Virus record (IMG/VR): IMGVR_UViG_3300028453_000031
Source of the DNA: a virus
Taxonomy: Duplodnaviria > Heunggongvirae > Uroviricota > Caudoviricetes
Reading direction: 5' to 3' (one strand)
DNA: 18,658 nt
Part shown: piece by piece, positions 1-17,205 of the stretch
Layout: every line of letters starts with the position of its first letter
Position numbering within the stretch: the first letter of the stretch is position 1
Notes under the pieces: generated by a model
The model's database searches: none
The model's input: the letters and a program-made list of their open reading frames with translations, nothing else
What the model was told of the DNA's origin: nothing
Position numbers and translations under genes: made by a program

Positions 1-586
1 TTTCCACCCGGCGCGCAGAAAGCATACGCAGCAGACGTTCACGGCTGAGAATTTCGCCCGGATTGGTCACAAATGCCACCAACATTTCATACTCTGCGCG
101 GGTTAGTTTAATCGGTTCGCCATCAAAACCTTTCAGGCGCGAATACACCGTCACCACCACAAACGGCAGGCAGAAGGTGATATGCGAGAACAGCAGCGAC
201 CAGAAGCAAAGCTGAATACCCAGCAGCATAAACAGCACCAGAAGCGAAATCGCCATCACAATATCTGGCGACATCATCACCACAAACAGCATTCCGCTAA
301 CGAACGGCTTACCACGAAAGCGATAACGGTACAACGCAACTGCCGTCAGTGAACCGATAAGCGTAGCAAACGTCGCCGAAAACACCGCCATCGTCAGTGA
401 ATGCTGAGCTGCCTGCAACAGACTGTCGTTGTTCATCAGCAGGCTATACCATTTGGTGGTAAAACCCTGCCAGTTGATGCCAAAGCGCGAGCTGTTGAAA
501 GAGTTCACAATCAAAATAATGATTGGGATATACAGGTACGCGTAGATAGCGGTCATAAAACCGCCGCGAAGCAGTCGACCGATCAT
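1..586 (-). CDS. potC: Host ABC transporter permease, PotC-like N-terminal region; apparently disrupted and chimeric at its 3' side
   Basis: Minus-strand ATG at 584-586 translates to MIGRLLRGGFMTAIYAYLYIPIIILIVNSFNSS..., which matches my recollection of the PotC N-terminus. As displayed, the frame hits TGA at 347-349 while PotC-like sequence continues in another frame. The last ~40 codons (1-121) encode GEPIKLTRAEYEMLVAFVTNPGEILSRERLL, an OmpR-family winged-helix segment. Confidence 0.5.
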   Translation of the reverse strand, partial: MIGRLLRGGFMTAIYAYLYIPIIILIVNSFNSSRFGINWQGFTTKWYSLLMNNDSLLQAAQHSLTMAVFSATFATLIGSLTAVALYRYRFRGKPFVSGMLFVVMMSPDIVMAISLLVLFMLLGIQLCFWSLLFSHITFCLPFVVVTVYSRLKGFDGEPIKLTRAEYEMLVAFVTNPGEILSRERLLRMLSARRVE

Positions 587-752
587 TCGAGTTCCACCTT
601 CTTATTCATAAGGCGGGGTACTTTCAGGATTTTGAATTTATTCAATTTTTTCCTTTCTCCAAAATCTCTCCAAAACTTTTCCCCAAAACAAGGCCACGCA
701 TTTTACAACACTTTTTTCCTGCGATGGTGACGGATATTCCATATAGTGTTTG
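587..752. other. Probable attL arm: AT-rich intergenic region between host gene start and integrase 3' end
   Basis: A/T tracts between the PotC-like start and the int stop; int is oriented toward it. The core sequence cannot be fixed without the other prophage end. Confidence 0.4.
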
Positions 753-1871
753 TCAAATAACCAACTTAACCCATTCCTGACCTCGGGTATCGTTATAGCG
801 ATCGGTGGTTGCCTGGACTTTATGTCCTAGTAAGGTTTTTGTATCGATACCCTGTGCACGGTACAGCCGTTCAGATAGAGAGCGTTGTTCATGAAATGTG
901 GGCGGTGTTTTTCCTGCTGGTGGAATTATTCCAGCCAGATCCCGCGCTTTGGCAAAGTAGTCGCTCAGGTTGTCTTTACTCATCGGCTTTGGTTGTTTCT
1001 GGTGCCGACTATGGATTAGATATGGACTTAATATTCTGTCTCGGCATCCATCAATAACGTCTTTTAACGTTATCCCAATGGCATCACAGCGTAGTGTAAG
1101 CGGTAACGCCAGACGCATTCCGGTTTTTCCCTGGGTGATATGCAAGTGTTCGTTCCACACATCTGAAAAACGCATGTGGCAAATGTCATCACGGCGCTGA
1201 CCAGTGACAATCGCAAGAAGCATTGCGTTACGGATAAAGTGTTTTTCCGGTGTTGCGTTGTAAATTTTTTGCCAGTCTTCCAGGGCGAGCCTGGCTCTGG
1301 TTACTTTAGGGATCGGTTTACGGGTAGCCTCCGGAGGATTCCATCCAGGAGGAACTTCCCCTGCATGTTGTGCTTCTTTATAAATATCAACCCATAATCC
1401 GCGATTTACTCTCGCTGTGCTGACCATGTCTTTATCCAGCCATTCATCCAGTATTAATGCAAAGTCTCTTACTTCCAGGTCTTTCAATGGGTGATTTCCC
1501 AGGCGGGAAACTAGGTATGCAGCCATTCGCGCCTTTTCTTTGTGGGTTGTAGCTGCAATATCTCCATTTTTCAGTCGTGAGTCCTGTATTTTCAGATATC
1601 GATCAACCCATGCTTTTAATCTGATACCCCGACGTTTTGTTGCTGATGGACTTTCATCAATTTTGCGCATGAAATATTCTGCTTCTGCTGCAGCTATTCG
1701 TTGATTAGCCGTGGAAGCGATTTTTTCTGCCTTGCCTTTGTCTGTTCCGAGTCCGTGAAATTTACCAGTCACTGGATTTTTATACTGGTAGTAAACCTTG
1801 CCAGTTCTGCGATCAAACTTTTCGTAAAGACATGCTATGTCAGTGCTGTTTTTTCGTGGCCTCGGTGACAT
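753..1871 (-). CDS. int: Tyrosine site-specific integrase (lambda Int family)
   Basis: 372-aa ORF with C-terminal catalytic motifs HEQRSLSERLY and LLGHK...DRYND, and an R-containing box (TGQRRDDI). Its start overlaps the xis stop region. Confidence 0.95.
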   Translation of the reverse strand: MSPRPRKNSTDIACLYEKFDRRTGKVYYQYKNPVTGKFHGLGTDKGKAEKIASTANQRIAAAEAEYFMRKIDESPSATKRRGIRLKAWVDRYLKIQDSRLKNGDIAATTHKEKARMAAYLVSRLGNHPLKDLEVRDFALILDEWLDKDMVSTARVNRGLWVDIYKEAQHAGEVPPGWNPPEATRKPIPKVTRARLALEDWQKIYNATPEKHFIRNAMLLAIVTGQRRDDICHMRFSDVWNEHLHITQGKTGMRLALPLTLRCDAIGITLKDVIDGCRDRILSPYLIHSRHQKQPKPMSKDNLSDYFAKARDLAGIIPPAGKTPPTFHEQRSLSERLYRAQGIDTKTLLGHKVQATTDRYNDTRGQEWVKLVI

Positions 1872-2109
1872 GAGTTAAAATCTCCTTCAGTGCGTCATCA
1901 TCGTCAGTATGAATTTCCGGCGCAATTCCTGTTTCACCAGGACCCACAAATACTGCTCGGCGATCTATCAGCCAACGCCCACGGATTTTTTGTGGCCTTG
2001 GAACGATGTATCCCAGTTTTCCGTATTTCACCAGGGTAGAGTTTGTTATTGGGAGACTGAACCGTTTAGGCTTCCACTCGTCGAGCGTTATCAGGTACTG
2101 TTCGCTCAT
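1840..2109 (-). CDS. xis: Excisionase (Xis-like)
   Basis: MSEQYLITLDEWKPKRFSLPITNSTLVKYGKLGYIVPRPQKIRGRWLIDRRAV resembles lambda Xis (YLTLQEWNARQ...PPPVKDGREYLF). ATG at 2109 has a GGAG 8 nt upstream; the 3' end overlaps the int start. Confidence 0.8.
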   Translation of the reverse strand: MSEQYLITLDEWKPKRFSLPITNSTLVKYGKLGYIVPRPQKIRGRWLIDRRAVFVGPGETGIAPEIHTDDDDALKEILTHVTEATKKQH

Positions 2110-2170
2110 GGCCATCACTCCGGAATGCGCCAGTTGCAGAATAGCAACTACAACTGGCGACGGTTGAACA

Positions 2171-4627
2171 TTAAAAATCAGCCTGACTCGGGATCAGTTT
2201 TTGCCAGATGGCTGAAACGTATTTTGCCTGGTAACGCGCATCGTGCAGGGCGTTATGGCGTTCACCTTCGAATGGAATAGTCGTTCTTGCGTCGAAATCC
2301 ATCACCAGTCCCAGAGCAACCATCGTTCTTACATCGCGATCATTGGTATAACGCCACGGGCAGGGGATCCCCTGCCGTTCATATGAACGGCGTAAAATCA
2401 CGTTGTCGAAAGTTGCACCGTTACCCCAGACCTGAACAAAAAATTCACCGGAGTTTTCGTCGATAAATTCCCGCAATTGTAACAGTGCATCATCTAACGG
2501 GATTTCATCGGTCATAATGGCAGATTGCGCTTCGCGTGATTGCTTAAGCCACCATTTAATGGTGTCCCGATCAATGACTCCGCCAGCAGTTTCCAGATCG
2601 ACAGTCTTACTAAATTCCGGTCCCATATCTCCGGTTTGCGGATCGAAAAATATTGCACCTATTGAGATAATCGGGGCATCAGGATTTTTTCCCATGGTTT
2701 CAAGGTCGATCATTAGATGGTCACACGTCCTGCTGGTGGATGTGATAACGTGATGACCGTTCACCGTAATTAAGGGATCTGCCGTCTCGTCAGTTTCACT
2801 ATCGCTGGCGTGGTCCTGAGCGCTGCCAGCATTCTCCTTGCGTGGATGTTCAGCGCCTTCCATTTTCTCCGAATCGTCTTCCTGAACTTCAACCTGGTTC
2901 TTGTCATCGAATGTTTCCTGGTATGTTGCGTCGCCCATCACCGCACCACAATCAGGGCAGTTGCCGCCACCGCTCTGACCGCAGGCGGTGCAGATCTTTT
3001 CCGGTTCTTGTTGCACTACTGGTTCAGGTTGTTTCGTTTCTGGCTCGTTTTGTTGCGTATTTGGGCTGTTTTGTTCCGCTTTCTGGTCGTTCTGTTCCGT
3101 TTCTTGCTGGTTCTGGTTCACAGAATCGCGGGTTTCAATCCCCTTCACCCATTTAGGATCATTCGGATCGCTAATCCCTTCAACAAATTCACCACGCGAT
3201 ACAGCAAGCAACTTATCGGCATCAGGCTGGCTGATACTGGCTGCCTGCATAGTTTTGTTTACTTCGTCAGCGGTGACTTTTAATTGGTTAGCGGAACTCA
3301 CCTGCGACTGAGCATCCAGCGACTGCGCGTCCTGGCAATGTTCAGTTGTATCCGGTTCCATTCTTTCAGTTGTTGCCTGTTCACCTGCCATTGCGTCAGA
3401 TGGTTGTGGTTTTTCTTTTTCTGTTTCACGCTCAGTAACCACCTCGCGGTTAATTTCTTCCAGGATATCTTTTTCCGGCGTATGCCGGGCAGCTGTGAGA
3501 GTTTCCTTGCTGGGGTTCTCGTGATCAGTTTCCGTCAAATAGGCGTTGATATACCCCTGAAGGCGTCCCGGGTAGTGATAAAATTCAGGGTGTGCGCTTC
3601 GGATAAGTGCAAAAATAGCGGCGCGGGAATAGTCCAGAATACCCGGGGTTGCACGAAGTTCTGCGGACCATTCTTTGAACGGACTTTCTTTTTTCAGGAC
3701 GACTTCTTTTGCGCGACGATAAATGCTGCCCGGAATTTCATAAATATTAAAATCCATCGGAAGTGTGGCTGCTGCAATCTCCACATCCAGTGTGTCGAGG
3801 GTGTGTACTAAATTCGGATTGCGATCGGTTTTGTTCCCTCCACCGGCATTAGCACCGGAAGTCGTGCGGGTGATGCGTGAAACACGATTTCCTTTCATCC
3901 ACTCTTTTGTCAGCAGACCGCGATCGGTGTAGTCAGCGCCCAGGTATGCTTCGAAAAAAGCAGTCATCAGCCCCAGGTCTGAATTACCAGGATTAGGGAA
4001 AACCTTGTCAGTGTCACGAACCAGTTTGTGGAGATCGCGAATTTCCAGCGGTTCGAGTTGCGCAGCTTTATTTGAGATGGCCAGCGCGGTAACGGCGGGA
4101 AGTTTTTCATCCTGTGCGTTATGTAATGCACGCAGTTCGCCCCGCGAAACGTGTGTGATCGGTTTTTCGCTGCCGTGCTGTGCCAGCCATTGAACAGGCA
4201 GAATCTGACCTGAAACCGGCAGGAGCATATTCTCCTCAATCTCAGTCATGTCTTCGCTGTTGACGTTGGTATTGTCAGTGCTGGCTGGTTTGTCCTGAAC
4301 AGAGGATGAGGGCGCGATAGGTGAGGGCGCGATAAGTACCATTGTGATACCATCTTCCCCGCCTTTTTCGTATCGGTTGCAGAATTCGGTATCAAACACG
4401 CCTTCCGGAGGAAGGTCATTCACAACGGGTAAATGGACGCGAACAGGTTTTTTAAAATCCTCTTCGTCAAATCCAGCATCGTCCATTGCGACAACACCGC
4501 GTGATATTGCAACCGATAATTTTTTTGCTGTGCGCCAGTAAAAACCGCCTTTAATCCCAAGACGTTTTCTGACTTTGTCATTTTTGGCTTCGTAATATAG
4601 TGCAATTTCTTCTTTATCAGCGCTCAT
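2171..4627 (-). CDS. Large early protein with C-terminal DnaQ-like (DEDDh) 3'-5' exonuclease domain
   Basis: 818-aa ORF. C-terminal motifs: Exo I MIDLETMG, Exo II WGNGATFDNVIL, Exo III HNALHDARY. Central acidic/Gln-rich low-complexity region with CTACG...CPDCG zinc-ribbon-like pairs. GAGG 8 nt upstream of ATG. Confidence 0.8.
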   Translation of the reverse strand: MSADKEEIALYYEAKNDKVRKRLGIKGGFYWRTAKKLSVAISRGVVAMDDAGFDEEDFKKPVRVHLPVVNDLPPEGVFDTEFCNRYEKGGEDGITMVLIAPSPIAPSSSVQDKPASTDNTNVNSEDMTEIEENMLLPVSGQILPVQWLAQHGSEKPITHVSRGELRALHNAQDEKLPAVTALAISNKAAQLEPLEIRDLHKLVRDTDKVFPNPGNSDLGLMTAFFEAYLGADYTDRGLLTKEWMKGNRVSRITRTTSGANAGGGNKTDRNPNLVHTLDTLDVEIAAATLPMDFNIYEIPGSIYRRAKEVVLKKESPFKEWSAELRATPGILDYSRAAIFALIRSAHPEFYHYPGRLQGYINAYLTETDHENPSKETLTAARHTPEKDILEEINREVVTERETEKEKPQPSDAMAGEQATTERMEPDTTEHCQDAQSLDAQSQVSSANQLKVTADEVNKTMQAASISQPDADKLLAVSRGEFVEGISDPNDPKWVKGIETRDSVNQNQQETEQNDQKAEQNSPNTQQNEPETKQPEPVVQQEPEKICTACGQSGGGNCPDCGAVMGDATYQETFDDKNQVEVQEDDSEKMEGAEHPRKENAGSAQDHASDSETDETADPLITVNGHHVITSTSRTCDHLMIDLETMGKNPDAPIISIGAIFFDPQTGDMGPEFSKTVDLETAGGVIDRDTIKWWLKQSREAQSAIMTDEIPLDDALLQLREFIDENSGEFFVQVWGNGATFDNVILRRSYERQGIPCPWRYTNDRDVRTMVALGLVMDFDARTTIPFEGERHNALHDARYQAKYVSAIWQKLIPSQADF

Positions 4628-4717
4628 TGATAAACCTCATAACCATTTTTAGGGTGAACAAGTCCCTGCCATTGCTGGCATATAAAAATGAAACCGGATA
4701 TTTATTACGGTGCTGGT

Positions 4718-4909
4718 TTAAAGCCCTGCCGGGACTTCGTTATTATCCATGCGAATAACTTTATCTACCGGATAACAGTTACCGGGAATTTTCTGTTCAT
4801 CTGCGGCAGCCATGCATTCTTCCATTGAGTCACGTATATCAACAATAAGATCAAGTGGTTCGCCGGTATTAAGAAAAACTGTCAGAACGAGTGCGAATGC
4901 TGTATTCAT
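4718..4909 (-). CDS. Small hypothetical early protein (63 aa) with hydrophobic N-terminus
   Basis: MNTAFALVLTVFLNTGEPLDL...; start is coupled by an ATGA overlap to the stop of the upstream small gene. The ORF track's longer version (4718..4963) uses an upstream start I consider less likely. Confidence 0.5.
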   Translation of the reverse strand: MNTAFALVLTVFLNTGEPLDLIVDIRDSMEECMAAADEQKIPGNCYPVDKVIRMDNNEVPAGL

Positions 4910-5094
4910 TGCCAGTATCCTTTTTGCATCAGACGTAAACGGGCCAGCATTGAAACAATGCATATTTGATTTAATAACTCCCGTTCGTGTTTTCTCTTAT
5001 TAATGGCATCTTCAGTAAATGCAGGGTTACTGATACTGACACCAATTTCAAAACAACCTTCAGACGTATTAACGTTTGGTAATAACGTTTCCAT
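4906..5094 (-). CDS. Small hypothetical early protein (62 aa)
   Basis: ORF METLLPNVNTSEGCFEIG... with a GAGGA Shine-Dalgarno ~7 nt upstream of the ATG. Confidence 0.55.
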   Translation of the reverse strand: METLLPNVNTSEGCFEIGVSISNPAFTEDAINKRKHERELLNQICIVSMLARLRLMQKGYWQ

Positions 5095-5270
5095 TATCGC
5101 GTCCTCAACAATGAATTTTGTGATGCGGTGCCTGGTGCCTCCAGATGACGTTAACCAGTTAACAATTAACGCCGGATTGTTAGTTGATGTCTGTTACGGA
5201 AGTAAAAGACCGCTTGTTTTAACTGTTCCGCGTGCGCATAGCCGCATTCACCGCATCACAAAATTCACTT

Positions 5271-5297
5271 TAAAAAGGGCGGATATCCATTTCCGCC
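5271..5297 (-). terminator. Rho-independent terminator candidate for leftward early transcription (tL-like)
   Basis: Inverted repeat GGCGGA / TCCGCC (5278-5283 and 5292-5297) with an 8-nt loop; on the minus strand it is followed by a U-run (plus-strand A-run 5272-5276). Confidence 0.5.
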
Positions 5298-5617
5298 GAA
5301 TCACCAGAAAAGTGATAACAGAGGTTGTTGTGGCTGGGGTGTCACTTAAGCGTATGGTCAACCTGACAACCCGGTGTCCTCAATGGGGGAAGGAATAACC
5401 CCGCCATACTTACCGCCGCGCCATTTCGCGGATTGCCACAACCGGAAGCGCACGGTCGAATTAAATTTAACGACAAAGTACAGAGAGACGAACTTCGCCG
5501 AGCGCTTTCGTGTTGTGTGCCTGCTTTTAACCACGTCAGGTGAGGTGGACCTGTTATTCCCCAACAACAAGGATCTTGTTAATCTGGATATCCACAACAA
5601 CAATAAGAGTATTGAAT

Positions 5618-5797
5618 GTGATCGCTGAATTAACGGCAGCAATGACGGCTATTCGTGAAACCGCTCAGATTGCAAAACTAATGAACGAGGCAAAAACTCA
5701 AGCTGAAGTAAATGCGGCTATTGGTGAACTGAACTCAAAGCTTGCATCTATTCAGCGCGAATGCGTGTCTCTCGTTGAGCTGGTGGGCACTTATTAA
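5618..5797 (+). CDS. Small coiled-coil-like ORF on the plus strand, ending at an in-frame TAA
   Basis: Frame encodes ...VIAELTAAMTAIRETAQIAKLMNEAKTQAEVNAAIGELNSKLASIQRECVSLVELVGTY*. Start is uncertain (GTG 5618 with weak AAGAG, or ATG 5645). The same frame stays open after the stop through 6133. Confidence 0.35.
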   Translation: MIAELTAAMTAIRETAQIAKLMNEAKTQAEVNAAIGELNSKLASIQRECVSLVELVGTY

Positions 5798-5917
5798 GAA
5801 ATAAATGCTTCTCTCAAAGCTAAAATTGCAGAATTTGAAAACTTTGAGGCTCAGACGGAAGGTTATATCCTTAACCAACTTGAGTCGGGAACTTTTGTGT
5901 ACTCGAAGGAGGTAACC

Positions 5918-6133
5918 GTGAACGGCGGCAGCATAATCATGCATCTTTGTCCAAAATGTTTTGGACAAAATATAGTATCGATACTTCAACCATTCCCGGT
6001 TAGAGAATATGAGTTTTTTCATAAAAGCAGGTGCCTATACTGTGAAAATCAGTTTATTATGAATAAAAATCCGGATTATGTATCGCCTCCATCTATTGAG
6101 AAGTTGGCCAGAAAACTGAACGGCAATCTGTAG
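5918..6133 (+). CDS. Small zinc-ribbon protein (CxxC...CxxC) on the plus strand
   Basis: Strong Shine-Dalgarno AAGGAGG at 5906-5912, 5 nt before GTG 5918. Product VNGGSIIMHLCPKCFGQN...RCLYCENQF... has two CxxC pairs. Confidence 0.5.
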   Translation: MNGGSIIMHLCPKCFGQNIVSILQPFPVREYEFFHKSRCLYCENQFIMNKNPDYVSPPSIEKLARKLNGNL

Positions 6134-6246
6134 ATTGTTACTGTTATGGATATCCAGATTGTTAAAGAGCATGCCGGATGCTTGCTTGTGTCCGGCGCGT
6201 GTGCACCAGTTCTCCCCGTGGAGGATTCCTTAACTACCAGACTTCA

Positions 6247-6480
6247 TTAGTTAGAGTTTCTTGCTAACCAGCGATGCGCGCCAGCTGCGGTTTTAAACGT
6301 TTTACTTTTGGTATACGTCATCGCGGTGAAGGTGCCGTCCTGGTTAGGGAACACACCGCATACCAGAGATTCGTTGTTACCAAGATTGAGCGTATCCATG
6401 TTGACCTCATTTCCCCTTAACGCCGGGGGAGCGGAACAAAAACCTGCTGCATAGTTATTAATGTTGAACCCTGCCGTCAT
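6247..6480 (-). CDS. Hypothetical protein, first gene of the leftward (pL-like) operon
   Basis: 77-aa ORF with GAGG ~9 nt upstream of the ATG, immediately downstream of the left operator pair. Not Arg-rich, so not obviously N-like. Confidence 0.5.
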   Translation of the reverse strand: MTAGFNINNYAAGFCSAPPALRGNEVNMDTLNLGNNESLVCGVFPNQDGTFTAMTYTKSKTFKTAAGAHRWLARNSN

Positions 6481-6585
6481 GTTCTTACGCCTCAGGCTGG
6501 CTACTTAACCCCTGACCACTGCCGGGTAACTCGAAGTATTGCCCTGCGTTCTGTGGGGCGGGGTGGGTTGGTATGAAAAGAAGGA

Positions 6586-6621
6586 TACCCATAGGTATTT
6601 AAAAAGTAAATACCCATGGGT
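6586..6621. promoter_or_regulatory. Left operator pair (OL-like): two copies of ATACCCAYRGGT
   Basis: ATACCCATAGGTAT at 6586-6599 and ATACCCATGGGTA at 6609-6621 (TACCCATGGGTA is a perfect palindrome). The same motif recurs on the other side of the repressor gene. Confidence 0.5.
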
Positions 6622-6666
6622 AACTTTTTTTACGGTGTCTTAACTGGTGACTGGTTGTTTGGTGAG

Positions 6667-7086
6667 CTATGATGCGTTTTGCGCTTTCTTTTTACGGATT
6701 TCTTCGTAGATCATATTGTAATACTGTTTTTTCTCTTCAAGAGTTTTTAATAAGTTATCCGCTTCACTTTCTGGCAGTTCGTCTAAGAGATCTAAAAAAA
6801 TACGTTGTCGTGGCGTTAGAACCCTTGTTTCATAACTGGAGGCTGTGTTCGTTGATGATGAAACGATACCATCCATCCATCCCCGGGGTAACCCAAAGGA
6901 CTCTTCGATAATCTCCACCATATCATCAGCGATCCGTTTTTTTCCCTTTTTCCCCTCTGGGTACAACATTCTTGATACATAAGAAGGCTCGCGCCCGATC
7001 TTTCTGGCCACGTTAACCGCTTTACCATCGCATTTCTCATCACGAATTTTGATGAGTTGCTGTCGTCTAAATTCATATTTGTCCAT
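6667..7086 (-). CDS. Prophage repressor, RacR-like, HTH, without a LexA-type peptidase domain
   Basis: 139-aa ORF divergent from the cro-like gene, with an HTH-like segment AVNVARKIGREPSYVSRMLY and no S24 peptidase motifs. No obvious Shine-Dalgarno, so possibly leaderless like lambda cI. Confidence 0.8.
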   Translation of the reverse strand: MDKYEFRRQQLIKIRDEKCDGKAVNVARKIGREPSYVSRMLYPEGKKGKKRIADDMVEIIEESFGLPRGWMDGIVSSSTNTASSYETRVLTPRQRIFLDLLDELPESEADNLLKTLEEKKQYYNMIYEEIRKKKAQNAS

Positions 7087-7122
7087 AGGTAAATAATAGA
7101 TGCGATTACTGCAAGGTAAACA

Positions 7123-7158
7123 ACCTGTGGGTATTGACTTTTGTTTACCTGCGGGTAT
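7123..7158. promoter_or_regulatory. Right operator pair (OR-like) in the divergent promoter region
   Basis: ACCTGTGGGTAT at 7123-7134 and ACCTGCGGGTAT at 7147-7158 are reverse complements of the ATACCCAYRGGT motif seen at 6586-6621, within direct repeats TTGTTTACCTG. Confidence 0.55.
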
Positions 7159-7186
7159 TCTTTGCTGTGTTTACTAAGGAGTAGCT

Positions 7187-7468
7187 ATGGAAGAATTAAG
7201 AATATTTCTCAATTCTCTTTCGTCAGATGAACAGCGTATGTTTGCATGCGAGTGCGGTACCAGCATCGGTTATCTAAGAAAGGCATTGAGTAAAGGTCAA
7301 GTGTTAGGGGCATCGTTATGTGTCCTTATTGAGCGAGCCAGTAATGGTGAAGTTACACGTCAGCAACTAAGGCCTTTTGATTGGATGAATATTTGGCCCG
7401 AGCTGGAAGATACCAAAACGTTAACACAACCACTTTCTAGGAGCTTGATTCATGAAAATCAAGCATGA
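7187..7468 (+). CDS. Cro/CI-type HTH regulator, YdaS-like
   Basis: 93-aa ORF with AAGGAG Shine-Dalgarno, divergent from the repressor. HTH-like CGTSIGYLRKALSKGQ. Position and size match Rac ydaS. Confidence 0.75.
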   Translation: MEELRIFLNSLSSDEQRMFACECGTSIGYLRKALSKGQVLGASLCVLIERASNGEVTRQQLRPFDWMNIWPELEDTKTLTQPLSRSLIHENQA

Positions 7469-7877
7469 ACACATCTGTATGGCGATGAATGCCTGGGCGC
7501 GTCCTGATGGCGAAAAAGTTCCAGTAGCTGCAATAACCCAGGCTTATTTTGAGTTGGGTATGACGTTTCCTGAACTGTATGACGACAGCCATCCGGAAGC
7601 CCTGGCTCGCAATACCCAGAAAATTTTCCGCTGGGTAGAGAAGGACACCCCTGATGCTGTTGAAAAAATTCAGGCGTTGTTACCGGCGATCGAAAAGGCG
7701 ATGCCGCCTTTGCTGGTGGCCCGTATGCGCAGTCACAGCTCTGAATATTACCGTGAGATCGTCGAACGGAGGGATCGACTGGTGAAGGATGTCGATGATT
7801 TTGTTGCGTCAGCGGTTGTTTTGTATGACCAGATGAATCGCGGCGGCCCGGCAGGGAATGCTGTGGTGATGCACTAA
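7452..7877 (+). CDS. YdaT-like protein
   Basis: 141-aa ORF overlapping the YdaS-like 3' end, AGGAGC before the ATG. Order and size match Rac ydaS-ydaT. Confidence 0.7.
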   Translation: MKIKHEHICMAMNAWARPDGEKVPVAAITQAYFELGMTFPELYDDSHPEALARNTQKIFRWVEKDTPDAVEKIQALLPAIEKAMPPLLVARMRSHSSEYYREIVERRDRLVKDVDDFVASAVVLYDQMNRGGPAGNAVVMH

Positions 7878-7899
7878 AAGCACGGTGTTCGGGGGTTTT

Positions 7900-8862
7900 A
7901 TGAGCAGCAAGCTTCATGGTCTTGTCTGGGAAGGGTGCGCCTTCACCGGCATGATCTTATCCAGGGTGGCAGTTATGGCCCGTCTTGCAGACTACAGCAA
8001 TGACGAGGGCGTGTCATGGCCTGCCATTGAAACTATCCGGCGTCAGATCGGTGCAAGAAGTGAATCTACCGTGAAATCTGCTATTGCAGAACTGGCGAAA
8101 GAGGGCTGGCTGACGAAGGAAGAGCGTAAGGTCGGTGGGCGTAACGTAAGCAATATCTATCGGCTTAATGTGGAAAAACTCGAAGCAGCTGCAGCTGCGG
8201 CCCGTGAGGCATATAAACCGAAAAGAAAAATTAGCCCGGCAAAAAATGACCCGTTAACAGTTGACCCGTCAAATATTGACCCCTCAACTGTTGACCCGTC
8301 AAATTTTGATGGATCAACTGTTGATAAAAAACTGCCGATTAGGGGGGCGATGATTGACCCCGATCCGTCAGTATTAAAACCTGATCCGTCAGATAAAAGA
8401 TCTTCTTGTCCGGACGTTTCGCAACCGGACCCGCAGACGGCTGAACAGGATTTTTTAACCCGACACCCTGACGCGGTTGTGTTCAGTGCGAAAAAACGCC
8501 AGTGGGGAAGTCAGGAAGATTTGGCGTGCGCACAGTGGATCTGGGGACGAATCGTGAGTCTTTACGAGCAGGCGGCCAGCGATGATGGCGAGATCACGAG
8601 ACCGAAAGAACCCAACTGGACAGCATGGGCCAATGATGTGCGCACAATGCGGATGCTGGATGGCAGAACTCACAGACAAATTTGTGAAATGTTTGGGCGT
8701 GTCCAGCGGGATTCGTTCTGGGTAAAAAACATCATGAGTCCGGCAAAACTCCGGGAAAAATGGGATGAACTGGTTATCCGCCTGGGGCGTTCGCCCGCGC
8801 AGCGTTGCGTGAATCACATTTCTGAACCGGACACTGAAATACCGCCGGGATTCAGGGGGTGA
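7900..8862 (+). CDS. Replication initiator (O-like / YdaU-like) with N-terminal winged helix
   Basis: N-terminal HTH region (ARLADYSNDEGVSWPAIETIRRQIGARSESTVKSAIAELAKEGWL); internal tandem iterons; immediately upstream of the DnaC-like gene. ATG 7900 preferred over the track's GTG 7885 (G-rich SD-like stretch upstream). Confidence 0.8.
   Translation: MSSKLHGLVWEGCAFTGMILSRVAVMARLADYSNDEGVSWPAIETIRRQIGARSESTVKSAIAELAKEGWLTKEERKVGGRNVSNIYRLNVEKLEAAAAAAREAYKPKRKISPAKNDPLTVDPSNIDPSTVDPSNFDGSTVDKKLPIRGAMIDPDPSVLKPDPSDKRSSCPDVSQPDPQTAEQDFLTRHPDAVVFSAKKRQWGSQEDLACAQWIWGRIVSLYEQAASDDGEITRPKEPNWTAWANDVRTMRMLDGRTHRQICEMFGRVQRDSFWVKNIMSPAKLREKWDELVIRLGRSPAQRCVNHISEPDTEIPPGFRG
8246..8320. repeat. Iterons (candidate ori): five tandem ~15-bp repeats inside the initiator gene
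   Basis: Units TGACCCGTTAACAGT / TGACCCGTCAAATAT / TGACCCCTCAACTGT / TGACCCGTCAAATTT / TGATGGATCAACTGT with 15-bp period, encoding DPLTVDPSNIDPSTVDPSNFDGSTVD. This is the lambda O-type arrangement. Confidence 0.65.
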
Positions 8863-12656: not shown

Positions 12657-12812
12657 ATGAAGCAGCAAAAGGCGACGTTAATCGCCCTGATCGTCATCTG
12701 TTTAACCGTCATAGTGACGGCACTGGTAACGAGGAAAGACCTCTGCGAGGTACGAATCCGAACCGGCCAGACGGAGGTCGCTGTTTTCACAGTCTACGAA
12801 CCTGAGGAGTAA
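12657..12812 (+). CDS. hok: Hok/Gef family type I toxin
   Basis: 51-aa product MKQQKATLIALIVICLTVIVTALVTRKDLCEVRIRTGQTEVAVFTVYEPEE matches the Hok family pattern (TM helix then TRK.LCE.R.R.G..EVA....YE). AAGGAG 9 nt upstream. Confidence 0.85.
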   Translation: MKQQKATLIALIVICLTVIVTALVTRKDLCEVRIRTGQTEVAVFTVYEPEE

Positions 12813-15944: not shown

Positions 15945-17003
15945 ATGTTTAATACTGTAAAAATATCCAGTTGTGAGTTGATCAACGCTGACTGCCTGGA
16001 ATTTATCCGGTCGTTACCCGAAAATTCTGTTGACCTGATAGTCACGGACCCGCCGTCCTTTAAAGTGAAGCCTGAGGGCTGGGATAACCAGTGGAAGGGC
16101 GACGATGATTACCTGAAATGGCTGGACCAGTGTCTGGCGCAGTTCTGGCGGGTGCTGAAACCTGCCGGAAGTCTTTACCTGTTCTGTGGCCATCGCCTGG
16201 CATCTGACATTGAAATCATGATGCGAGAACGCTTCAGTGTGCTGAACCATATTATCTGGGCGAAGCCGTCCGGACGCTGGAACGGGTGCAACAAGGAAAG
16301 CCTGAGGGCGTATTTCCCCGCCACAGAGCGCATTCTGTTCGCGGAACATTATCAGGGGCCGTATCGTCCGAAAGATGCCGGGTATGAGGCGAAGGGCAGG
16401 GCACTGAAACAGCATGTGATGACACCGCTGATTGCTTACTTTCGTGATGCGCGTGCTGCCCTGGGGATAACGGCAAAACAGATTGCTGATGCCACAGGAA
16501 AGAAAAACATGGTGTCGCACTGGTTCAGTGCCAGTCAGTGGCAGTTACCGAACGAAAGCGATTATCTGAAATTACAGGTGCTGTTTGCCCGGGTGGCAGA
16601 AGAGAAGCATCAGCGGGGTGAACTGGAAAAGCCCCACCACCAGCTGCTGGAGACGTATACTTCACTGAACCGGCAGTATGCGGAACTGCAGAGTGAATAT
16701 AAGCATCTGCGGCGGTATTTTGGCGTGACGGCGCAGATGCCGTACACGGATGTGTGGACGCATAAACCGGTGCAGTACTATCCCGGGAAACATCCGTGCG
16801 AAAAACCGGCAGAAATGCTGCAGCAGATAATCAGCGCGAGCAGTCGTCCGGGTGACCTGGTTGCAGATTTTTTCATGGGGTCGGGTTCGACAGTCAAAGC
16901 CGCGATGGCGCTGGGGCGGCGTGCAACTGGCGTTGAGCTGGAGACTGAACGTTTTGAGCAGACGGTCAGAGAAGTTCAGGATTTAGTCAGTCAGAACGGA
17001 TGA
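15945..17003 (+). CDS. Orphan DNA methyltransferase, beta-class amino-MTase (N6-adenine or N4-cytosine)
   Basis: Motif IV-like LIVTDPPSF near the N-terminus and motif I FFMGSGST near the C-terminus (beta-class order). No adjacent restriction endonuclease gene. Confidence 0.85.
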   Translation: MFNTVKISSCELINADCLEFIRSLPENSVDLIVTDPPSFKVKPEGWDNQWKGDDDYLKWLDQCLAQFWRVLKPAGSLYLFCGHRLASDIEIMMRERFSVLNHIIWAKPSGRWNGCNKESLRAYFPATERILFAEHYQGPYRPKDAGYEAKGRALKQHVMTPLIAYFRDARAALGITAKQIADATGKKNMVSHWFSASQWQLPNESDYLKLQVLFARVAEEKHQRGELEKPHHQLLETYTSLNRQYAELQSEYKHLRRYFGVTAQMPYTDVWTHKPVQYYPGKHPCEKPAEMLQQIISASSRPGDLVADFFMGSGSTVKAAMALGRRATGVELETERFEQTVREVQDLVSQNG

Positions 17004-17043: not shown

Positions 17044-17119
17044 GGCCCTTTAGCTCAGTGGTGAGAGCGAGCGACTCATAATCGCCAGGTCGCTGGTTCA
17101 AATCCAGCAAGGGCCACCA
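17044..17119 (+). tRNA. ileZ: tRNA-Ile (anticodon CAU, lysidine type), ileX/ileZ-like
   Basis: 76 nt, 7-bp acceptor stem GGCCCTT/AAGGGCC, anticodon loop CTCATAA, T-loop TTCAAAT, 3' CCA. Near-identical to E. coli tRNA-Ile2 as I recall it. Confidence 0.85.
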
Positions 17120-17128
17120 TATCACATA

Positions 17129-17205
17129 CCGCCATTAGCTCATCGGGATAGAGCGCCAGCCTTCGAAGCTGGCTGCGCGGGGTTCGAGTCCTCGATGGCG
17201 GTCCA
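17129..17205 (+). tRNA. tRNA-Arg (anticodon UCG)
   Basis: 77 nt, acceptor CCGCCAT/ATGGCGG, D-arm GCTC/GAGC, anticodon stem CCAGC/GCTGG with loop CTTCGAA, T-arm CGGGG-TTCGAGT-CCTCG, 3' CCA. Resembles the rare-codon Arg tRNA (argO-like) of Stx phages. Confidence 0.8.

Follow-up and report, generated by a model that had tools for sequence, protein, structure and literature searches.

RecE (exonuclease VIII) of the Rac prophage of Escherichia coli K-12 carries its nuclease domain at residues 564-866, and the function of its N-terminal ~600 residues is described as unknown (2023 review, PMC11611040); Fu et al. 2012 (as cited in PMC11611040) reported that the full-length protein enhances linear-linear recombination. 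DexA of phage T4 is a 3'-5' DNA exonuclease, and EcD is a stand-alone E. coli homologue of DexA, with a defence role shown for plasmid-borne EcD only (PMC12153337). Here, a gene related to both RecE and DexA was analysed, which fills positions 2171-4627 of IMG/VR virus record IMGVR_UViG_3300028453_000031, an 18,658-nucleotide (nt) stretch of Caudoviricetes DNA that is called the window throughout. Its product is shown to be a modular prophage nuclease, consisting of a folded scaffold of ~400 amino acids (aa), an acidic and mostly disordered tether of ~230 aa and a DEDDh exonuclease domain. Both this architecture and the loss of the partnership with RecT are secure. Relative to the characterised systems, sequence comparison identifies the protein as a catalytic-domain-swapped RecE variant with a DexA-type nuclease. 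The sequence family is already in Pfam, PHROG and RefSeq, and what is new is the interpretation, not the gene.

Exchange of the catalytic domain on a RecE scaffold

The open reading frame (ORF), of 818 codons plus a stop, is the longest of the window and lies on the minus strand, as the plus-strand reading of 2171-4627 is riddled with stops; an earlier reading by a model that saw only the letters and their ORFs (the sequence-only reading) had delimited this real ORF without stating its strand. A 100% identical gene is found in E. coli M18, where PGAP calls the same coding sequence (CDS) 'exonuclease'. The gene and its modules, from the N terminus onwards, are:

2171..4627, minus strand: complete CDS of the RecE-type scaffold plus DEDDh exonuclease (PGAP 'exonuclease', WP_073527772.1)
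4457..4627, minus strand: N1 head, aa 1-57, variable, unlike K-12 RecE aa 1-49, predicted strand-helix-strand-helix
3818..4456, minus strand: N2, aa 58-270, RecE N-terminal domain (PF06630), with a disordered loop at aa 102-117
3428..3817, minus strand: N3, aa 271-400, helical block, the scaffold part most widely conserved across Enterobacteriaceae
3311..3427, minus strand: acidic disordered segment, aa 401-439, predicted local distance difference test (pLDDT) score below 50
3134..3310, minus strand: MID, conserved motif block, aa 440-498 (VTADEVNK...SRGEFVEGISDPNDPKWVKGIETRD), common to Rac RecE and the exonuclease of the phage mEp460 type
3029..3112, minus strand: Q-rich stretch, aa ~506-533, in which a 21-nt (7-aa) unit is repeated in tandem, in four degenerate copies
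2948..2992, minus strand: Cys4 zinc-ribbon-like motif, aa 546-560 (CTACGQSGGGNCPDC), CTAC at 546 and CPDC at 557
2741..2941, minus strand: acidic disordered tail, aa 563-629, inside which the DNA homology to recE ends
2174..2740, minus strand: DEDDh 3'-5' exonuclease domain, aa 630-818 (Pfam PF16473 at aa 637-808)

The DnaQ-like DEDDh exonuclease that the sequence-only reading had placed at the C terminus was confirmed by a match to Pfam PF16473 (Rv2179c-like; E 9e-66; 221.4 bits versus a gathering score of 27; model positions 2-177 of 177) and by the catalytic residues D641, E643, D741, H791 and D796, which are invariant with D7, E9, D119, H186 and D191 of T4 DexA. DexA (8KEL/8KEN) was the sole PDB entry matched by sequence (E 1e-8), and a Foldseek search with the AF2 model of the domain (pLDDT ~90) also returned DexA 8KEN/8KEL at the top (E 5e-11; TM 0.63-0.71 on the target), with RNase T, oligoribonucleases and REXO2 as the next matches. 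No match to the PD-(D/E)XK family PF12684 was found in the window protein; K-12 RecE matches this family at 615-850.

The remainder of the protein, of which the sequence-only reading had wrongly held that nothing outside the C-terminal ~180 residues could be recognised, resembles RecE. PF06630 (Exonuc_VIII) matches aa 56-194 (E 9e-27), and the NCBIfam exonuclease VIII model NF007259 aligns aa 1-621 to its positions 1-603 of 877 with 903.2 bits, which is below its equivalog cut-off of 1269. By BLASTP the identity to K-12 RecE is 51% over aa 58-~621, with no meaningful alignment beyond, and the two proteins share an SRGEFV.GISDPNDPKWVKGI motif, a Q-rich stretch (14 aa shorter in K-12 RecE), a Cys4 ribbon (CNACGQTGGDNCPDCG in RecE) and an acidic tail. 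By these matches, the non-catalytic part of RecE has its homologue in aa 1-620, linker and zinc ribbon included. The DNA homology to Rac recE extends as far as window 2769, which corresponds to codon ~620 here and codon ~590 of recE, and this endpoint is the boundary of the RecE nuclease domain. As the homology stops at that boundary and the partner gene is gone (next section), the protein can be described as RecE with an exchanged catalytic domain: the PD-(D/E)XK 5'-3' nuclease of RecE is shown, as judged from sequence, to have been replaced in place by a T4 DexA/Rv2179c-type domain.

The modules were modelled in two parts, aa 1-440 (from an alignment of 53 sequences) and aa 430-818. The first model reached a mean pLDDT of 84.3, with 268 residues at 90 or more, and consists of an alpha/beta head (aa ~1-100), a disordered loop (102-117) and a mostly helical body (~120-400), with predicted disorder beginning at aa 410. 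In the second, aa 430-630 were mostly below 50, except for an element at ~470-489 (68-75), the ribbon was low and the DEDDh domain confident. Thus aa 1-400 are predicted to fold confidently and ~401-630 to be disordered, so that the N-terminal linker of the sequence-only reading holds for ~401-630 and fails for aa 1-400, where a fold is predicted (mean pLDDT 84). The acidic, Q/E-rich low-complexity stretch that it had described is indeed present: aa 401-620 have a net charge of -32 and contain 12.7% E and 11.4% Q, and the Q-rich heptads read QNQQETE / QNDQKAE / QNSPNTQ / QNEPETK. The CTACG...CPDCG pair, too, is where it had been seen, in a protein that holds just 8 cysteines. This Cys4 motif is kept in E. 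coli-type proteins including RecE. As a family-defining feature the zinc ribbon was rejected: it is absent from divergent DEDDh fusions, its Pfam DZR match has an E of 0.11 and its AF2 confidence is low.

Comparison with the closest described proteins is as follows. (i) With Rac RecE the window protein shares the N-terminal ~620 residues and the genome position upstream of xis and int, whereas the PD-(D/E)XK domain (PF12684) is exchanged for DEDDh and the inferred polarity is opposite. (ii) With T4 DexA it shares the DEDDh fold, the five catalytic residues and D169 and D90 (D777 and D713 here); however, the 227 aa of DexA form a stand-alone protein in a lytic phage, with 24-29% identity depending on the method, whereas the window domain is the C terminus of an 818-aa multi-module protein. 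DexA W152 aligns to T761 (W758 lies three residues upstream) and S87 to P710, both alignment-dependent. The two surface insertions of DexA are missing from the window protein (alignment gaps), as they are from EcD (PMC12153337). (iii) With EcD/'HREX' it shares the domain family, E. coli origin and conserved catalytic residues; EcD, in contrast, is domain-only, from its Exo I start (MIDTET...) to its end (...TIPETY) by the cloning primers, and has Ala at the DexA D90 position where the window protein retains Asp. (iv) With the mEp460/CP-933P/Qin ydfE-type exonuclease (823 aa) it shares aa ~449-818, about 90% identical at the DNA level, and the context dicB, ydfD, exonuclease, xis, int; in that type, however, the first ~245 residues are unrelated, the next ~150 are weakly similar (N3 being weakly present) and PF06630 has no match.

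Partner genes, distribution and selection

With aa 1-440 as the query, a species-level genome scan yielded 32 loci; almost all of them belonged to genera of the Enterobacteriaceae (Escherichia, Shigella, Citrobacter, Kluyvera, Enterobacter, Pluralibacter, Klebsiella, Raoultella, Atlantibacter, Phytobacter, Yokenella and Scandinavium) or enterobacterial metagenome-assembled genomes (MAGs). A detectable C-terminal nuclease module was kept in 27 of the 32, comprising 9 DEDDh and 18 PD-(D/E)XK loci (4 Rac-type plus 14 divergent). In all nine DEDDh loci, across genera, xis/int begin 80-550 nt after the nuclease, which leaves no room for another gene. Directly behind the nuclease of the four Rac-type loci, recT was found every time; the divergent PD-(D/E)XK loci show a gap of 1.5-2 kb before xis/int wherever these were detected, and the ORF in that gap, in the eight loci examined, encodes 351-371 aa of the RecT family (PF03837, E 1e-33 to 1e-42). 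A RecT-family gene was therefore directly downstream in 12 of the 12 PD-(D/E)XK loci checked. This partner pattern indicates that the exchanged unit is the PD-(D/E)XK domain together with recT on one side versus the DEDDh domain alone on the other, and the conserved tether is the likely crossover site.

The window follows the DEDDh pattern. Rac continues with recE, recT, ralR, rcbA, xis and int, and the prophage of the window is without recT, ralR and rcbA. No RecT, Bet or Erf-type gene was found among the window ORFs or in the whole M18 prophage, which extends to an entire prophage the earlier observation that no partner recombinase is evident nearby; neither the mEp460 left arm nor the complete phage HannyBb contains a recognisable annealing protein, and PHROG scans of 10 window ORFs plus 4 HannyBb early ORFs returned only families that are unrelated or of unknown function.

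Beyond these loci, a query with aa 1-620 against 1.84 billion representatives of 50%-identity clusters found only 264 at E ≤ 0.001. Among scaffold representatives of at least 450 aa, the DEDDh domain was present in 14 and the RecE-type PD-(D/E)XK domain in about 20, while of 39 further representatives, most with uncovered C-terminal tails, 8 matched Pfam DUF3799 (PD-(D/E)XK-like; a few of the 8 overlap the ~20 above) and 3 held a fused RecT; the other tails among the 39, many of them 200-500 aa long, had no Pfam match. In the three with a fused RecT, one polypeptide holds both the RecT and the PD-(D/E)XK domain; they are either true RecE-RecT fusions or gene calls merged across the overlapping recE/recT stop/start. 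All 120 close homologues listed have the PF06630 plus PF16473 architecture; their database names are 'exonuclease', '3'-5' exoribonuclease' or, misleadingly, 'exodeoxyribonuclease VIII'. Proteins of the same architecture occur in Klebsiella, Enterobacter, Pluralibacter and Phytobacter at 40-60% identity. Among 5426 complete E. coli genomes (module coverage ≥80%), the DEDDh module was present in 4048 (about 75%; 8063 places, up to 7 per genome), the RecE PD-(D/E)XK module in 1730 and the full window-type gene in 1257. Shiga-toxin phage relatives carry the same module.

Two scanned loci came from MAGs with other labels: that of a 'Proteobacteria bacterium' is Rac at 99-100% identity, and a 'Veillonella parvula' contig (JAGZPX010000007.1) shows an E. 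coli-type prophage arm and is probably a mis-binned enterobacterial contig, because its xis and int are 100% identical to those of mEp460. A stand-alone relative was observed in the P2-like Escherichia phage 899 (L007:2998-5202), where a 183-aa DEDDh exonuclease, 44% identical to window aa 630-818, sits between replication gene A and the portal gene and has as its neighbour a 519-aa protein that matches PDC-M03, a candidate defence system in PADLOC. We take this gene A-portal interval to be the P2 tin/old defence hotspot.

E. coli K-12 keeps only a truncated remnant of the mEp460-type variant, namely ydfE, a pseudogene of prophage Qin that is cut by IS2E (L041:5079-5999) and matches the first 255 residues of the mEp460-type protein at 96% identity; an O157 copy is a truncated pseudogene as well. 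No publication dealing with this fusion, or treating ydfE as an exonuclease, turned up in literature searches, and the truncation of the DEDDh version in K-12 may explain why no functional study was found.

The ratio of non-synonymous to synonymous substitution rates (dN/dS) was determined for the window gene against a 90%-identical phage copy (vB_EcoS-640R1), against mEp460 and against Rac recE. It was ~0.15 for N1 and N2, 0.17-0.36 for the motif block (aa 440-545), 0.06-0.14 for the ribbon and 0.16-0.17 for the DEDDh domain, versus 0.55-0.9 for the acidic stretches 401-439 (~0.87 against Rac recE) and 563-629 (0.55-0.8). Purifying selection thus acts on all folded modules, and the acidic stretches behave like compositional linkers. 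Synonymous divergence from vB_EcoS-640R1 varied ~70-fold by module, from 0.011 (N3) to 0.75 (N1), a spread that points to recombination inside the gene. The gene is intact in the viable phages mEp460, HannyBb and vB_EcoS-640R1.

The prophage setting

The host element is a Rac/Qin-like lambdoid prophage inserted beside potC, and the genes that define the position of the nuclease in it are:

753..1871, minus strand: integrase (int), at the prophage end adjoining potC
1840..2109, minus strand: excisionase (xis), starting 62 nt downstream of the nuclease stop codon with no gene between
4718-4909, minus strand: ydfD-like gene (DUF1482), upstream of the nuclease
4906-5094, minus strand: dicB, upstream of the ydfD-like gene
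6667..7086, minus strand: repressor-like regulator, heading the leftward arm

Leftward from the repressor-like gene, the order is a ydfA-like DUF1391 gene, dicB, the ydfD-like DUF1482 gene, the nuclease, xis and int, in which dicB, the ydfD-like gene and the nuclease reproduce the dicB-ydfD-ydfE order of prophage Qin. From this gene order, the nuclease is the distal gene of the early-left (dicB-type) operon, and the label 'early protein' given by the sequence-only reading is reasonable by gene position alone. The rightward arm, with ydaS/ydaT-like, O-like and ydaV-like genes, is Rac-like. A promoter scan gave 6 promoter-like matches versus 7.5 expected in shuffled sequence, none of them directly upstream of the nuclease gene.

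Several further features were observed around the operon. An inverted repeat with a 16-bp stem and a T-run (6586-6622, minus strand) lies between the repressor-like and ydfA-like genes, and could be a terminator or operator-like element controlling entry to the dicB-type operon; a terminator-like hairpin is found at 5278-5297 (minus strand). An Rfam search of window 1-8000 returned nothing above the gathering score, DicF included; dicB is present, yet the region upstream of it (5094-5620) is without DicF or any other Rfam family above that score. At 5618-6133 on the plus strand, opposed to the early-left operon, PGAP calls a hypothetical CDS with an internal stop (a pseudogene). ORF coordinates equal those of the M18 record (NZ_CP010219.1) exactly up to ~6400, beyond which they are shifted by 1 nt and, further on, by 10 nt; the window thus derives from a very close relative of M18 or from another assembly. 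In the late-regulatory region that record has tRNA-Ile plus tRNA-Lys behind a DNA methyltransferase gene (window ~17044-17198 and 15945-17003), and hokD near window 12657-12812, all positions being offset by ~10 nt from the M18 record.

Candidate functions and their implications

By analogy with DexA and RecE, we lean slightly towards a RecT-independent enzyme that would trim or degrade DNA ends and would be expressed from the early-left operon after induction. Once made from this dicB-type operon following prophage induction, the DEDDh domain, as inferred from the DexA/DnaQ family, would remove nucleotides from DNA 3' ends in a Mg-dependent manner, and scaffold and tether would provide the same targeting or assembly service as in RecE, with DNA ends or a partner protein as its plausible site. 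Its targets could be broken host DNA, competing DNA or phage DNA ends, and the role would resemble that of DexA in host-DNA breakdown and end processing (PMC12153337). As 3'-5' polarity would destroy the 3' tails that annealing proteins or RecA need, and recT was never present, the enzyme is unlikely to form a two-component recombinase. The suspicion of the sequence-only reading that this is not a standard RecE-like recombination exonuclease is therefore upheld, with the correction that the N terminus is RecE's own and the change is a catalytic-domain swap; as to full-length homology to a characterised exonuclease with its partner encoded elsewhere, homology to RecE covers the non-catalytic part only.

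Several points weigh against DNA-end degradation. PF16473 takes its name from an exoribonuclease, and among the close neighbours of the domain in structure are RNase T and oligoribonucleases. EcD, the stand-alone homologue, reportedly acts as a nuclease in defence against T4 (PMC12153337), and this suggests another role. Targeting of DNA ends by the scaffold is a guess based on the action of RecE; a Foldseek search with the scaffold found nothing significant in PDB (best E 1.3) or BFVD (best E 0.3), although it used the whole multi-domain query, from which small-domain matches could escape. Moreover, one of the small hypothetical early genes could conceivably encode an annealing protein that went unrecognised.

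The EcD result leads to the alternative that survives best, though we think it improbable: a prophage defence or exclusion nuclease of the EcD/HREX kind, which would degrade incoming T-even DNA of the 5-hydroxymethylcytosine (5hmC) type and spare host DNA. The domain is of the family of DexA and EcD, plasmid-borne EcD is reported to protect E. coli from T4 (PMC12153337), and the equivalent of D169 is kept as D777. The gene is also carried by prophages, is very common and frequently occurs in several copies (up to 7 per genome), and the stand-alone homologue adjoins the PDC-M03 candidate in a P2-like phage. However, EcD is domain-only and the window protein a fusion, and the sequence signature of EcD (tetramer residue D90 of DexA replaced, readers W152 and D169 kept) is not found in the window protein, which has D713, T761 and D777 at these positions (alignment-dependent). 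PADLOC models give no match to the window protein, and the gene is distal in a repressed early-left operon with no promoter-like site directly upstream.

A broader and equally conflict-centred proposal, which we regard as speculative and rather unlikely, is that RecE scaffold and tether form a general nuclease-delivery platform of enterobacterial lambdoid phages, whose real job would be phage-host or phage-phage conflict and not recombination. Its swapped warheads would be the 5'-3' PD-(D/E)XK nuclease plus RecT, the 3'-5' DEDDh nuclease alone or unassigned tails, and the DEDDh version would be an exclusion or counter-defence nuclease.

That the enzyme acts as a 3'-5' exoribonuclease during induction, for example on transcripts of host or phage, on small RNAs or on the 3' ends of tRNAs, appears less probable again. 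An RNA substrate is possible given the exoribonuclease family name, which refers to Rv2179c of M. tuberculosis, and the RNase T-like neighbours, with RNase T, oligoribonuclease and REXO2 all strong structural matches; many database entries are also named '3'-5' exoribonuclease'. Yet the closest characterised relative in both sequence and fold is the DNase DexA, scaffold and tether are common to a DNA exonuclease, and RNase T also cuts DNA, so fold neighbours cannot settle the substrate.

We doubt, more strongly, a counter-defence nuclease that would destroy the nucleic acid of an immune system, such as the multicopy single-stranded DNA (msDNA) of a retron, and act as a trigger in hosts guarding it. 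Canonical RecE degrades msDNA, triggers retron-Sen2 and retron-Eco9 and is cited as anti-restriction (bioRxiv 10.1101/2020.06.22.160242); the shared scaffold could serve a RecT-independent conflict role, and the frequent module swapping is typical of arms-race genes. However, truncated RecE, a commercial NEB enzyme, cleaved msDNA in vitro (bioRxiv 10.1101/2020.06.22.160242), so this activity lies in the PD-(D/E)XK nuclease and says nothing on the scaffold.

Very little speaks for a recombination exonuclease that would work with an annealing protein encoded elsewhere, such as the RecT or Bet of another prophage, or with host RecA. The gene does sit at the genome position of recE in Rac, E. coli genomes often hold several prophages, some with recT, and T4 DexA contributes to double-strand-break repair in intron homing (PMC12153337). 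Nevertheless, the part of RecE that is missing is the nuclease domain that interacts with RecT, digestion with the inferred 3'-5' polarity would eliminate the 3' tails on which annealing proteins act, and an adjacent annealing gene is absent from the nine DEDDh loci across genera and from free-living phages alike.

A non-functional chimera, in which a deletion would have fused a decaying recE to a downstream gene, is hardly credible: prophage left arms do decay often, and K-12 ydfE and an O157 copy are truncated, but the purifying selection on every folded module, the thousands of intact copies, the architecture kept at 40-60% identity in other genera and the presence in viable phages all argue against it.

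RecE is a recombineering workhorse, and the window protein shows that its N-terminal region is an independent, folded and selected module. More than once this region has been coupled to a nuclease with the opposite predicted polarity, in every case without RecT, which argues against a function bound to annealing by RecT; the fusion offers a natural domain-swap system for probing what the scaffold does. If the enzyme degrades DNA ends at induction, or excludes other phages, recombination between prophages and gene flow would both be affected, also among the relatives of Shiga-toxin phages that have this module. If scaffold and tether are instead a delivery platform, study of the DEDDh version, the commonest in E. 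coli, would reveal the role of the two-thirds of RecE described as 'function unknown'. The value of the finding lies in this handle on the unexplained two-thirds of RecE, and in a very common, unstudied prophage nuclease of E. coli.

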